IMG/VR virus record: IMGVR_UViG_3300045988_096557
DNA from: a virus
Length of the DNA stretch: 64,000 bases
Direction: 5' to 3' (one strand)
Position numbers and translations under genes: made by a program. Each line of letters opens with the position of its first letter. Position 1 is the stretch's first letter. Under the pieces are notes generated by a model that made no database searches, was not told the DNA's origin, and saw only the letters and a program-made list of their open reading frames with translations. Positions 21,558 through 26,292 of the stretch are shown here, piece after piece.

Positions 21558-21815
21558 ATGATTACTGTTGGTAAAAATACAGCCAATAAAATTATATATG
21601 GCGCGATTCATTTTTTATGTGATTACCAAAGTGATGTTGCTAATCTCCCTACAAACCGAAAGCCAGGCAGTTCGGCATATGTAATTGAAAATGGAAATAA
21701 ATATATTCTCAATTCTGATCATGAATGGGTGTTGTAGCCCTCTGGTGGAGGCGGAGATTAGCCTCTTCCTCCAGAAGATACAACTATTATTTATGATGGC
21801 GGACTAATTGGCTAA
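21558..21815 (+). CDS. Tail-fibre module small protein; 2 in-frame TAG (21735, 21759)
   Basis: RBS AAGAAAGGAG; frame open to TAA only with TAG read as sense. Confidence 0.5.
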
Positions 21816-21829
21816 AGGAGGGAGTGACT

Positions 21830-22390
21830 TTGGCTGAAGTTGTTTATAAAACAATATTTTAGTTCAAGCGAGGAACATCAGAGAAGTGGACCGAATTAAA
21901 TCCAATTCTTCGTCAAGGTGAGCCGGGATTTGAAATAGATACTGGAAAGTTAAAAATTGGAGATGGATCCACCGAGTGGAAATAGTTAAAATATATAAAT
22001 AGTAGTTTGGTAAATGTTGATGTAGACAATCAATCTATTGTTATTGATGGAATTGGACAGATTTCATTAAAAGGATTTACAGAAGCATCAACAGGGCAAT
22101 CTATTAGAAAAAGAGAAGATGGCACATTAGAGTGGTATACTCCAATATCTTAGGATAAAGTAATAGAAACTATCTCTATCGGAAATAAAGATTTGCCGGT
22201 TGAAGATAATAAAGTTACTATTCCGGCGGGAACAGAAGAAAATCTTGGTTTAATTAAGGGGAGTAGTTAGAATAACTAGATAAAAATACTTTCAGATGGA
22301 ACCGGAGAAATTAATTCTGTAGGACTTGATAAAATAGTGGATGTTGAAGGTTTTACTTTAATATTAAACTGTGGGACAGCAGTAGACTAA
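21830..22390 (+). CDS. Tail fibre protein with the conserved N-terminal fibre motif; 5 in-frame TAG
   Basis: TIF*FKRGTSEKWTELNPILRQGEPGFEIDTGKLKIGDGSTEW motif (paralogs carry Q at the first TAG position); TTG start after AAGGAGGG. Confidence 0.6.
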
Positions 22391-22410
22391 AATAAGGAGG
22401 CATTTTAAAG

Positions 22411-23472
22411 ATGGCCAATGAATTAAAAACTAGAATCCAACTTAGACATGATACCGAGGAAAATTGGACTTCAGTTAAGGACTCCTTTATTCCTCTCGTT
22501 GGAGAGGCTTGTCTTACCACTGATGGCGAGAATAAAGGAAAAGTAAAATATGGTGATGGAACAAGCACTTGGGGTTAGTTAGAATATTCTGGTGGAAAAG
22601 ATATTGTAGAAGTTGATTCATCTATTGTAAAATTTGATGATGATTTTACATTTACCTATACTTTTGGTAAATATGCTCCTGGAGGAGATGGATCTGTTAA
22701 TATTCCCGCGACTGGAAAAACATTAGATCAATTACTGCTAGATGCTTTTGCGGAAGAAAAAAATCCTACTATTACGCAACCTTCTGTTAGTATTTCCTCT
22801 AGTCAAATGAAAGCGTATGAAGCAGGCACTAATGTAACTCCAACTTATACTGCAACTTTAAATAAAGGATCTTATCAATACGGCCCAGACACTGGAATTA
22901 CAGCAACCGGTTGGAGCGTCCAATTTGATGAAGAAACAAAAACAGAAGCTACTGGAACTTTCTCTGAAATTCAAGTTGAAGATGCTACTAATTTAAAGAT
23001 TACAGCAACAGCTAATTATGGGAATGGAGCTATTCCTGTTACAAATCTTGGTTCTGAATATGCAGAAGGACAGATTAAAGCTGGATCTAAGTCTAATAGC
23101 ACAGGAGCTATTACTGGATATCGCTAGATTTTTTATGGAGTTAATAATTCTACAGATCCTTTAACTAGCGCGATTATTCGTTCTTTAACAGCAAGCAATA
23201 AAGCGGCAGCCGCAATGACTATTAATAGCATTAAAGCAAAAAGTGATACTAAGAGAATTATTATCGCAGTTCCTCAATCTTCTGGGCTTAAAGTTACCGC
23301 AGCTAATATTACTTCTAGTTTGAACGCAGATGTAACTTCTAGCTATGTAAAGCAAGGACCAGTGCAAGTAGAAGGAGCAAATGGATTTACCGCGGTTCCT
23401 TATGATGTATTCGTTTATCAACCTGCTTCCATTGATCCAACTGAGGATCATAAGGTTGTAATTGGAAAGTAA
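22411..23472 (+). CDS. Tail fibre protein; 2 in-frame TAG (22576, 23125)
   Basis: TRIQLRHDTEENW..KYGDGTSTW motif; ORFs 22807.. and 23215.. are in the same frame. Confidence 0.6.
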
Positions 23473-23489
23473 GGAAGGAGGAACAAATA

Positions 23490-24662
23490 ATGGCAGTAAT
23501 TAACAAAGATATTGCATATATGGCGTTACCTCTGAGTATTCGTAGAGGAAATCCTTTCCCTATTGATGAATATTCAGTATGGTATAATATGGAAGAATTA
23601 ACAACATATGCTCAATCTAGTCCTGTAGCATATGTTGGTTAGGTAGTTACCTTAGTTAATGAAGAAGAAAATACAGTTGAAGCGTATATGATTCAAAATG
23701 CTGCTGGCAATTTAATGAAATTGGCTTCAACTACTGCTTCTGGTGATTTAACGGAAGATGTTTTAGAGCTTCAAGGAAAAGTTTCCGCATTAGAAACCTC
23801 TGTTGGTACCAAAGAAGAAGAAAGTTCAATAACAGCTTCTAATCTTTGGGCAGCCATTGAGGAAGTTAAAGCAGCTTATGAAGCAGCTGATAGTTCTATT
23901 AATGGAAAATTTAATGATTATTATAATAAAACAGAAGCAGATTCTAAGATTGACCAAAAAATTGCTACTGCAATAAGTTCAACTTATAAACCTGCTGGTT
24001 CCATTATGTTTAGTTTCCTTCCTACACTTGGAGCTGATCAAGAGGGAAAAGTATATAATATTATAGATGCTTTCACCACTACTGAAGACTTCGTTGAAGG
24101 AGCTGATAATAAATATCCAGCTGGAACTAATGTAGTATGTATTGACACTGATGATGCTGGAACTTACAAATGGGATGTTCTTGCGGGATTTGTAGATTTA
24201 AGTGGATACGAAACTACAAGTAGTGTAGATACTAAGTTAGCTAATAAAGTCGACAAAGTAGAAGGATCATCTTTAGTTCAAGACACTCTAATTGCTAAAT
24301 TATAGGGTTTAGCAGAAATCAAAGGAGTCAGTGATGAATTAGAAATTGATCCTGATGATAAAACTCTTGGCGTAAAAGCGATTGCATAGGAGAAAATTAC
24401 TGGTCTTCCCGCGGCTTTAGCAGAGAAGATTAAGAGTATAACCGTAGGAACTACTCCTCTTTAGGTTAGCGATGGCGCAGTTACTATTCCTATTGCTACA
24501 GCAGAAGCCCTCGGTGTAGTAAAAAGCACTAATGGTGAAAATGGTGTTGCTATTACAGGCGATGGAACTATGATTGTCAATAATATAAATATAGAAAAAA
24601 TTACTTAGACTCCTGGTACAGAGCTTATCTTAAATGGCGGAGATGCTACTGTTAGTGAATAA
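23490..24662 (+). CDS. Tail fibre / receptor-binding protein, coiled-coil; 5 in-frame TAG
   Basis: Continuous frame 0 through ORF 23688..24305; RBS GGAAGGAGG. Confidence 0.55.
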
Positions 24663-24687
24663 AAATCAACTTGGAGGAAGATAAATA

Positions 24688-26025
24688 ATGGCTACAACTT
24701 TTAATACAAGAATCCAATTAAAATATGACACTTATGAAAATTGGGATACCAATAACCCCACTCTCCTAAAAGGAGAAATGGCGGTTGTTGAAGTTCCTGT
24801 TGAAACTGGAGTTGCTCAAAATGAGCCTACCTATTTGTTAAAAATCGGTGATGGTGAATCGGATTTTAAAACTTTAAAATGGGTAAGCGGGACGGCCGCA
24901 GATGTTTATGCTTGGGCTAAAGCGGCAAGTAAACCAACTTATGCAGCGACTGAAATTACCGGACTTGAAGATTTTATTGGAGAAAAAATTCAAGATACTG
25001 ATACACAATATTAGATTGTTAAAAATGGAGATATGGGCTTTAAGCTTCAATCTAGACCAAAAACTGGCGGGTCTTGGACAGATGTAAGCACCATTGCTCT
25101 GACCGCTCCCACTTATAATTTAGTCGAAGGGACTACTAATGGTACTGTAAAATTTGGAGTTACTGGTTCTGAAAAAGAAGTAAAAGTTCATGGACTTGGA
25201 TCAGCAGCTTATACTGAATCTAGTGCTTATGACGCAGCTGGGAGTGCAGATACAGCAAAAAGCGAAGCTATCGAGGAAGCTGCTAGTGCCACCGATGAAA
25301 AAATTGCAGCTCTAAAAATCAATGAATATGCAAAAACCACAGAAGTAGATTCTAAAATTGGGGCAGCAAAAACAGAGTTAATTGGTGAAGGAAGTGGTTC
25401 TTCCACTACTATTAAAGGTGCTTATGATGAAGCTAAAACCTATACTGATTAGCAAATTGCCGCTAGAATTTCCTCTACTTATAAAGCAGGAGGTTCTGTT
25501 GCATTTGCTTCTCTGCCAGAACTAACTGCAACAGAAGAAGGAAAAGTTTATAACATTCTTGATAAATTCACTACTACAGACGATTTCGTAGAAGGTTCCG
25601 GAAAGAGCTATCCTGCTGGCACTAATATTGTTTGTATAGATGTGGGAGAAGAAGAATTTAAGTGGGATGTTTTAGCTGGAATGGTAGATCTTTCAGCATA
25701 TGATACAGCAGATATAACTCAGGGGAAAATTGATTCTGCTAAGCAAGAGGCCAAAAGCTATGCAGATTCTAAAGTTAACGCTTTAGATAAAGAAGATTCT
25801 GCTGTAGCAAATCAATTTGTAACCGCGGTGTCTGAGACTGATGGTATCATTAGCGTAACTCGTGCTCAACCTACCATGGAGAATATCAACGGGTTACCTG
25901 CGGCTCTTGCTAAAAAAGCTAATGATGCAGACTTAGCATCTGTTGCTAAAAGTGGAAAGATTGATGATCTAACTCAGACCGCTACAATTATTTTTAATTG
26001 TGGAAGCTCTAGCACAGTAATGTAA
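24688..26025 (+). CDS. Tail fibre protein; 2 in-frame TAG (25012, 25450)
   Basis: ORFs 24688, 25033 and 25642 share one frame; TRIQLKYDTYENW..KIGDGESDF motif. Confidence 0.6.
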
Positions 26026-26034
26026 AATTTTAGA

Positions 26035-26076
26035 TAAAGCCCATATTTATTTAATAAATATGGGCTTTATCTTTTT
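26035..26076 (+). terminator. Rho-independent terminator (AAAGCCCATATTTA..TAAATATGGGCTTT plus T-run)
   Basis: Perfect long hairpin. Confidence 0.7.
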
Positions 26077-26094
26077 ATTAAGGAGGTCACAATA

Positions 26095-26292
26095 ATGACT
26101 TTTGATACTAGAATCTCTCATAAGATAGATACAGAAGAAAATTGGAAAACAAATAATCCAATTTTATTAAAGGGAGAATTAATTATAGTAGTTGATGAAT
26201 CTAATACAGTTCATCTTAAAATTGGAAATGGAACGAGTCATTATTCAGAATTGCCATTTATTGAAAATGAAATTGTCTGGGGTACTTTCTAA
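26095..26292 (+). CDS. Small tail-fibre-motif protein
   Basis: TRISHKIDTEENWKTNNPILLKGE..KIGNGTSHY motif. Confidence 0.5.
   Translation: MTFDTRISHKIDTEENWKTNNPILLKGELIIVVDESNTVHLKIGNGTSHYSELPFIENEIVWGTF

Follow-up and report, generated by a model that had tools for sequence, protein, structure and literature searches.

In-frame TAG codons, most probably read as glutamine, in the tail-fibre operon of an uncultured phage

We analysed a 64,000-nucleotide stretch of viral DNA (IMG/VR record IMGVR_UViG_3300045988_096557, hereafter the window) and, within it, the tail-fibre module at positions 21,558 to 26,292. The module is very probably the tail-fibre operon of an uncultured gut phage that uses genetic code 15, in which UAG would be read as glutamine (Gln) through a phage-encoded tRNA with anticodon CUA, TAA and TGA would be the sole terminators of translation, and TAG codons would be skewed to three gene modules. 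The window contains in-frame TAGs at Gln-equivalent positions, a suppressor tRNA gene and a markedly uneven TAG distribution, and none of its genes ends in TAG.

Five adjacent open reading frames (ORFs) on the plus strand, spanning 21558-26025, comprise 1459 codons, of which 16 are in-frame TAGs and none is TAA or TGA. Read in its two other frames, this DNA contains 226 TAA or TGA triplets, so that such an outcome would have a probability of about 8e-52 in non-coding sequence. The first gene encodes 85 amino acids (aa; 21558..21815) and has two TAGs, at 21735 and 21759. It is followed by a 186-aa Mtd_N-type tail-fibre protein (21830..22390, or from a GTG start at 21824) with five (21860, 21983, 22151, 22268 and 22277), a 353-aa fibre-module protein with an Mtd_N-like N-terminus (22411..23472) with two (22576 and 23125), a 390-aa fibre-module protein without Mtd_N (23490..24662) with five (23640, 24303, 24387, 24462 and 24606), and a 445-aa fibre-module protein with an Mtd_N-like N-terminus (24688..26025) with two (25012 and 25450). 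A stand-alone Mtd_N-like ORF of 65 aa (26095..26292, plus strand), which matches PHROG tail families, lies 3' of a terminator and has no TAG. Our recount over these six ORFs (2+5+2+5+2+0) agrees with the 16 TAGs reported in an earlier note on this DNA. Every one of the six ends in TAA and is preceded by an AGGAGG-type ribosome-binding site, and a reading under code 11 breaks the TAG-bearing genes into fragments of 2-220 aa. Stop usage over the 65 curated window genes is TAA 50, TGA 15 and TAG 0. The five TAG-bearing genes lie between hairpins and are predicted to form one unit, an operon.

The identity of the decoded residue was approached through codons, sequences from the Protein Data Bank (PDB) and homologs without in-frame TAG, because the Gln residues of close database homologs are circular evidence: these proteins, full-length and 54-96% identical, had been called with TAG as Gln, their contigs do not translate to the query under standard stops, and we rejected them as support. 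The relatives used are syntenic phage contigs. In one of them, L001 (ENA ERZ28581563 scaffold_7, 297,083 bp), the fibre-operon orthologs are 72-88% identical to the window in amino acids, and the 16 TAG sites are occupied by TAG (4), CAA (4), CAG (2), GAA (2), TTA (2), AGA (1) and AAT (1). In L001, the first TAG of ORF 21830, at 21860, corresponds to CAA (in an ortholog 73% identical to the window protein); 22576 corresponds to CAA and 25012 to CAG, the five sites of ORF 23490 are, in order, CAA, AGA, CAG, GAA and TAG, and the ortholog of ORF 21558 (86% identical) has TAG and CAA at its two sites. Over 36 ortholog pairs from L001 and a further relative, L007, window TAGs face CAA or CAG 17 times, TAG 10 times and other codons 9 times (Arg 3, Glu 2, and Asn, Leu, Lys and Ala 1 each). 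TAGs opposite a sense codon are thus paired with Gln in 17 of 26 cases (65%), which matches the rate at which true Gln codons are self-conserved (68%). In a likelihood model based on the substitution table observed in the same L001 and L007 alignments, Gln reaches a log10 likelihood of -18.2, as against -36.9 for Lys, the next best, and -38.7 for Glu, so that Gln is favoured about 10^18-fold. In the reverse direction, TAGs of the relatives lie opposite 4.1% of the window's Gln codons and opposite no more than 0.6% of the codons for any other residue. Judged by these codon comparisons, the in-frame TAGs are sense codons equivalent to Gln.

More distant homologs were compared at the column of the first TAG and in the endolysin of a second TAG-rich module. 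At the first-TAG column, two homologs that have no in-frame TAG (L010 and L011) carry CAA, and the L010 gene ends in a TAG stop; the HylP structures 6x3m, 2yvv, 2c3f, 3eka and 2dp5 carry Gln (QFKRM), as do 95 of 113 aligned database homologs, Lys being second with 12. In the endolysin, PlyL (1yb0) and phi29 gp13 (3csr) carry Gln at two TAG sites. Its TAG sites were also aligned with 49 loci of GTDB species genomes, mostly Clostridia and comprising both isolates and metagenome-assembled genomes (MAGs); CAG or CAA is found in 120 of 205 aligned codons, and sites 40, 146, 225 and 274 are nearly invariant Gln. The cultured strains among these loci belong to Butyrivibrio, Acutalibacter, Muriventricola, Flintibacter and Colidextribacter.

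The first TAG stands nine residues before the conserved Trp of an N-terminus of the Mtd_N type (Pfam PF18454, gathering threshold 26.3 bits). The earlier note had deduced Gln from paralogs in this motif, and the peptides it quoted, TIF#FKRGTSEKW for ORF 21830 (# being the TAG), RIQLRHDTEENW and RIQLKYDTYENW, are exact, with the TAG and both Gln at -9 from the Trp. The deduction stands for ORFs 22411 and 24688 and breaks down at a fourth paralog, ORF 26095 (TRISHKIDTEENW), which has Ser. With two Gln and one Ser, this one-column argument is thin when taken alone, and it is the codon-level orthologs and PDB sequences that carry the Gln identity; the register of the alignment is itself upheld by external homologs (L001, L010, L011, the HylP structures and the database homologs). 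The motif had been attributed to five fibre genes, a number that we reduce to four ORFs: ORF 21830 scores 50.9 bits, above the cut-off, while ORFs 22411, 24688 and 26095 score 24.2, 20.9 and 24.5 bits, below it, with E <=3e-4 and colinear alignment. No Mtd_N match was returned by hmmscan for ORFs 21558 and 23490, and a profile comparison of these two was not significant (E 0.11 and 0.84). A different, unrelated recoded phage (L012 501-1259, on a 98-kb contig, ENA ERZ28633392) reads TTF#FKRGSAAKW, with a TAG in the same conserved Gln column, which is either recurrent or ancestral.

ARAGORN places a suppressor tRNA with anticodon CUA on the plus strand at 27477..27552, 1.2 kb downstream of the fibre operon. 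It has a canonical cloverleaf with normal D-loop and T-loop (Rfam tRNA, 59.8 bits) and is kept in L001 and L002 save for one D-loop indel. The classical Gln identity elements, known from E. coli GlnRS and GatCAB, are a weak or unpaired 1:72, G73 and U35. With its U1.U72 mismatch, its G73 discriminator and U35 in the CUA anticodon, the phage tRNA matches these elements as defined for E. coli, and the enzymes of the actual host may differ. In acceptor pairs 2-6 it does not differ from the phage tRNA-Gln(UUG), which together with tRNA-Gln(CUG) lies at 19299..19450 (plus strand) and served for comparison; the anticodon and T arms resemble tRNA-Trp, and the anticodon loop is that of tRNA-Trp except for C35U. 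The suppressor has the look of a chimera, its acceptor stem being Gln-like and its anticodon and T arms Trp-like, and because it resembles both tRNAs the amino acid cannot be read off its sequence alone. The E. coli su7 amber suppressor, a tRNA-Trp changed from CCA to CUA, inserts Gln, so that a Trp origin of the phage tRNA would still predict Gln. A theta ribozyme (of the hepatitis delta virus-like, HDV-like, type) beside the tRNA, as in PMC10879173, was considered and rejected, the gap to the next gene being 20 nt and Rfam giving no HDV-like match.

Within the window, 43 in-frame TAGs occur in 15 of the 65 genes, leaving 50 without any, and eight genes with 16% of the codons hold 35 of them (Fisher p about 1e-12). 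Density is 10.5 per 1000 codons in the fibre operon (16 TAGs in 1524 codons; 32% of Gln codons), 14.6 in the cell-wall hydrolases (11 in 753; 33%) and 28.9 in a GIY-YIG gene (8 in 277; 40%), as against 0.6 in the other 56 genes (8 in 12881; 2%). Fisher tests of the fibre and cell-wall genes against the rest give p of about 2e-12 for TAG versus CAA and CAG, and about 7e-13 for TAG versus all other codons. The other 56 genes include those for gyrase A and B, DNA and RNA ligases, RNase H, PhoH, NAD salvage, Thg1 and a Major Vault Protein-like protein, along with many unknowns, and TAG hardly occurs in the genes for replication and nucleotide metabolism or in the unknown ones. Tabulated by functional class, TAG density is thus enriched about tenfold in three modules, and the proposal that recoded codons concentrate in late and structural genes holds within the window, where 'late' is a class predicted from function and promoter context.

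The second TAG-rich module is a lysis cassette on the plus strand (48700..51298), bracketed by terminator hairpins at 48650-48677 and 51300-51338. It comprises a NAGPA and SPOR domain protein (48700-49554; two TAGs), the endolysin, which combines Phage_lysozyme2, Amidase_2 and SLH domains (49557-50966; nine TAGs), and a holin-like ORF of 111 aa, which encodes two hydrophobic segments, overlaps the endolysin stop codon and completes the cassette. The third is the GIY-YIG gene (58201..59034, plus strand), with the highest TAG density in the window. Its product has an N-terminal hydrophobic segment, which is a probable membrane anchor, a long central region that looks coiled-coil by eye, and a partial or truncated GIY-YIG domain resembling those of group I intron endonucleases (Pfam, 26.7 bits; TIGR01453, 30.5 bits, under its cut-off). 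At four sites its TAG stands opposite CAA in L007, where the ortholog is 305 aa long. The late modules have their own codon usage, with fewer G-ending codons: G+C at third codon positions is 0.21 in TAG-rich genes versus 0.28 in the rest, AAG/(AAG+AAA) is 16% versus 40%, and GAG/(GAG+GAA) is 21% versus 36%. A specific replacement of CAG by TAG was considered, as (TAG+CAG) makes up 41% of all Gln codons in TAG-rich genes and 40% in the others, but it was set aside for want of specific support, since the depletion of CAG in TAG-rich genes parallels a general depletion of NNG codons (AAG, GAG, TTG). A partial ORF running off the end of the window (about 63030-64000, plus strand) has one in-frame TAG; it is DnaB-type helicase-like, with a Walker-A-like GTGKT recognised by eye.

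The promoter landscape differs between these modules and the remaining genes. Strong sites of the form TTGMAA-N17-TATAAT number 15 on the plus strand, where 1.2 are expected, and 3 on the minus strand; each of the 14 intergenic sigma-70-type sites precedes either TAG-free genes or tRNA genes. Among them, a perfect promoter (TTGACA-17-TATAAT with TG, 12/12 matches; 27011..27039, plus strand) stands 5' of ORF 27052-27387 and the suppressor tRNA. Each TAG-rich module starts behind a terminator-like hairpin (21365-21393, 48650-48677 and 58163-58191), at distances of 164, 22 and 9 nt from hairpin to start codon, with no sigma-70-type promoter in between. The hairpin 5' of the fibre operon (plus strand) has a 12-bp stem with 8 GC pairs and a T-run, and compensatory changes preserve the stem in L001. 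The 164-nt non-coding leader that follows (21394..21557, plus strand) contains no sigma-70 consensus promoter and none of the 15 strong sites. By eye, it is about 93% identical in nucleotides to L001, far above the coding DNA, and it is identical to a further relative, L005, over the part which that contig covers. A strong terminator hairpin (26032..26072, plus strand) closes the operon, with a 19-bp stem, a T-run and a 20-nt perfect inverted repeat. A shared late-promoter motif, GGGGTTTGGACAATTTATGTG, was rejected: it occurs only at 21462 and 28150, which is chance level, since at least two matches were obtained in 23 of 100 shuffles.

These features suggest a scheme in which the TAG-free genes and the tRNA array would be expressed first, by the unmodified host and from host-type sigma-70 promoters. 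A host enzyme would presumably charge tRNA(CUA) with Gln, by GlnRS or by the GluRS/GatCAB route. Until the suppressor outcompetes RF1, the TAG-rich modules would give only short truncated peptides, and the synthesis of fibre and endolysin would thereby be delayed and guarded against premature expression. The hairpins before the TAG-rich modules hint at control by read-through or antitermination besides UAG suppression. In this scheme we infer the charging enzyme, the timing and the adaptive nature of the skew. A fuller version, in which late genes would be doubly locked (needing UAG suppression as well as either read-through in transcription or a promoter specific to the phage) and the phage would belong to an undescribed Clostridia-associated clade of code 15 phages, is speculative, and we consider it doubtful as a whole.

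Several observations weigh against a Gln-decoding phage that recodes its late modules. At several TAG sites distant homologs carry other residues, namely Arg or Glu in the case of ThyX structures and Asn in that of Faecalibacterium phage FP_Brigit; we set these alignments aside as uninformative, the TAG sites falling in variable columns. Over its whole length tRNA(CUA) is 71% identical to tRNA-Trp and 68% to tRNA-Gln(UUG). None of the window proteins that were scanned with Pfam is RF2 or GlnRS, the window being about 43% of the genome. The holin-like gene of the lysis cassette has no TAG, though it has no Gln codons either. Single TAGs, eight in all, occur in the genes for UDG, ThyX, an RNA ligase, a metallophosphatase, YqeY and an AAA ATPase and in two small ORFs, none of them obviously late, so that the partition is strong and not absolute.

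With these points in view, we consider four alternatives, three of which concern the code itself. Decoding as another amino acid (Lys, Glu, Trp or pyrrolysine) would agree with the tRNA-Pyl label that ARAGORN assigns by default, with the Trp-like anticodon loop and overall similarity to tRNA-Trp, and with the second rank of Lys at the first-TAG column. It is nevertheless very unlikely: in ortholog-codon likelihood, Lys and Glu fall short of Gln by a factor of about 10^18 and Trp by more than 10^30, and four endolysin TAG sites are nearly invariant CAG or CAA in the 49 loci. We rejected the pyrrolysine label itself, since the tRNA is a canonical cloverleaf without the atypical architecture of tRNA-Pyl, the TAG columns are Gln, and neither pylS nor pylBCD was present among the window proteins scanned. 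Slightly less probable still is a host that itself reads TAG as sense or supplies the suppressor, the phage mirroring its code; we found nothing in favour of it. We know of no TAG-sense Clostridia; moreover, 50 of the 65 window genes avoid TAG, the phage has its own conserved tRNA(CUA), the L010 homolog terminates in TAG, and the endolysin homologs, those of cultured Clostridia isolates included, have CAG or CAA at the TAG sites. The least credible alternative is that the TAGs are real stops and the fibre genes pseudogenes, assembly errors or sets of short ORFs. The ORFs are indeed interrupted under code 11, yet no TAA or TGA occurs in their 1459 codons, the frames are kept in independent assemblies at the identities given above, and 12 of the 16 TAGs are sense codons in L001. 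L005, an independent contig, carries the identical nine TAGs across the three fibre-operon genes that it covers; Pfam, PHROG and PDB matches span TAG sites, and TAG terminates no window gene.

The main open rival accepts TAG as Gln and regards the clustering as permissive or neutral, TAG being tolerated once the suppressor is abundant or drifting with AT-rich codon usage. The TAG-rich genes do differ in general codon usage and are more AT-rich, TAG turnover is fast (4 of 16 kept in L001, with new ones elsewhere in the relatives), and eight TAGs are also found in metabolic genes. Against it stand the roughly tenfold enrichment in three separate modules, each behind a hairpin and without sigma-70-type promoters, and the same bias towards lysis, structural and homing endonuclease genes in unrelated phage clades (bioRxiv 10.1101/2021.08.26.457843). 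We regard a neutral origin of the skew as possible, though the less likely explanation.

The name 'tail-fibre module' is a reasonable one: direct support concerns one protein, and the others would be assigned through N-terminal similarity and operon context. That protein is encoded by ORF 21830, whose N-terminus matches PHROG families of tail fibres, tail spikes and hyaluronidases and whose sequence matches the solved tail-fibre hyaluronidases HylP of streptococcal prophages. An AlphaFold (AF2) model made from a database ortholog 96-99% identical to the protein is confident in the N-terminal domain only; Foldseek finds as its best match the HylP1 tail fibre 2c3f ('phage-encoded tail-fibre'), with E 2.4e-3, and next the Mtd protein of Bordetella phage. 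HylP1-3 (PDB 2c3f, 2dp5, 2yvv, 6x3m) and Bordetella Mtd (PDB 1yu0-4) have an N-terminal Mtd_N domain in common with it, and the shared motif reads QFKRxxxxxW...GExGFExDTGxxKIGDG, with Gln at the first-TAG column. The kinship is confined to the N-terminal ~50 residues; neither the hyaluronidase beta-helix nor the C-type-lectin domain of Mtd was detected in the window fibre proteins, and no reverse transcriptase of a diversity-generating retroelement was seen in the window. Among the other products, the 353-aa protein matches phrog_35541 and is 36% identical to an FP_Brigit protein, and the 390-aa protein matches phrog_33094 and phrog_38190, the latter being a central domain common to it and its 445-aa paralog. 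Neither Pfam nor PHROG gave a match for ORF 21558, the 445-aa protein matched nothing among PDB sequences, and the fibre proteins had no match in NCBIfam.

Coding in the window is almost wholly on the plus strand, G+C is about 36% and GC skew is positive. The phage genome is probably about 148 kb, because two contigs among the syntenic relatives, L013 and L014, measure 147.8 and 149.0 kb; about 57% of it would then lie outside the window, in which no capsid, portal, tail-tube or terminase gene was found. L001 is almost exactly twice as long as L013 or L014 and is probably a double-length (concatemer) assembly artefact. Both L013 and L014 were binned into Clostridia MAGs, and on the basis of these bins and of the endolysin relatives the phage is probably associated with Clostridia, Oscillospiraceae and Acutalibacteraceae being candidate host families. 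Contigs of about 148 kb include CALCFD010000051.1 and CALWOP010000177.1, and faecal samples ENA ERZ28617176 and ERZ27957419 contain the phage or a relative 99% identical to it. A megablast search of window positions 21000-33000 against 50,697 GenBank phage records gave no match, and two window proteins found only distant matches in those records; because of these two results, the lineage may not yet be represented in GenBank as a phage record.

ARAGORN finds 31 tRNA genes and a transfer-messenger RNA (tmRNA; 16751-17066, tag DNDYFENYLAA) in the window. The tRNA-rich regions (10178-21280 and 26736-28613) are interspersed with repeated sigma-70-like promoters, and nearly all 31 tRNAs have an encoded CCA end. 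Two tRNA-like genes on the plus strand were missed by default ARAGORN: one at 19620-19738, with a 117-nt Rfam match, is called by ARAGORN as tRNA-Lys(CUU) with a 42-nt intron if introns are allowed, and a long-arm gene at 19927-20010, Sec-like in Rfam and with a GTA anticodon by eye, is probably a tRNA-Tyr. A Twister-P1 ribozyme-like match at 13216-13273 (plus strand; 51.7 bits, E 3.7e-9, under the gathering score of 67.2) ends 5 nt 5' of tRNA-Ser(GCU) at 13279, which suggests that such a ribozyme may be linked to tRNA processing in the array. Further along the plus strand, a DUF2828 and DUF7788 protein (28857-30377) precedes an 813-aa protein (30789-33230) that combines a Band_7 domain with the shoulder and repeat domains of Major Vault Protein. 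In the phage collection, homologs of the latter occur only in huge phages of 462-735 kb (LR756500, LR756501 and LR756503), at 39-44% identity. A TAG-free cluster for NAD salvage and nucleotides (38057-44273, plus strand) encodes isochorismatase/nicotinamidase-like and PRPP-synthetase-like proteins, an NAPRTase family member and NAD synthase, and also a homolog of Thg1-like tRNA-His guanylyltransferase.

Recoding of TAG to Gln with suppressor tRNAs has been described by Borges et al. for the code 15 clades Lak, crAss-like, Jade, Sapphire, Agate, Garnet and Amethyst, with structural and lysis modules preferentially recoded and scattered along the genomes of larger clades, and with a recoded intron endonuclease (bioRxiv 10.1101/2021.08.26.457843). 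Our phage agrees with these clades in TAG as Gln, a phage tRNA(CUA), low G+C and the loss of TAG as terminator. Recoding centred in scattered structural and lysis modules is a likeness to Jade, Sapphire, Agate and Lak, and a recoded gene of homing-endonuclease type is a likeness to Agate, as is the genome of about 148 kb (Agate: 154 +/- 27 kb). Genes with in-frame stops make up about 23% here and 26-71% in that study (bioRxiv 10.1101/2021.08.26.457843). Unlike in those clades, the suppressor gene follows closely on the fibre operon and has a consensus sigma-70 promoter in front of it, and no 'code-change module' of RF2 and an aminoacyl-tRNA synthetase was seen in the window; such RF2 and GlnRS accessory genes occur in some code 15 clades only and do not define the group. 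In crAss-like phages of the human gut, the decoding of TAG as Gln in late genes was validated by metaproteomics (Peters et al. 2022, PMC9523058); the pattern here is alike, and the peptide-level proof is theirs. Those phages are Crassvirales that infect Bacteroidota, whereas ours would be Clostridia-associated and differs in gene content, with gyrase, NAD salvage, more than 30 tRNAs and tmRNA. The human gut phage phAss-1 of the proposed Phassvirus (Babkin et al. 2023, PMC10607447), whose genome is about 136 kb, also has suppressor tRNA genes and carries TAG in 41 ORFs, and our megablast search revealed no nucleotide similarity to it.

Module-specific recoding of TAG to Gln is therefore an already described pattern, and the mechanism is not new. 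For annotation, translation table 15 is needed, as the fibre, endolysin and endonuclease genes are otherwise split into the short fragments noted above; current pipelines do recognise TAG recoding, because relatives translated with TAG as Gln are already present in the protein database. The window adds a clean and consistent example of module-specific recoding, in a phage with a probable link to Clostridia, and leaves knowledge of the mechanism unchanged. For experiments on a model of how the code switch may be timed, it offers the suppressor tRNA, a set of candidate early promoters, and late modules bracketed by terminators.

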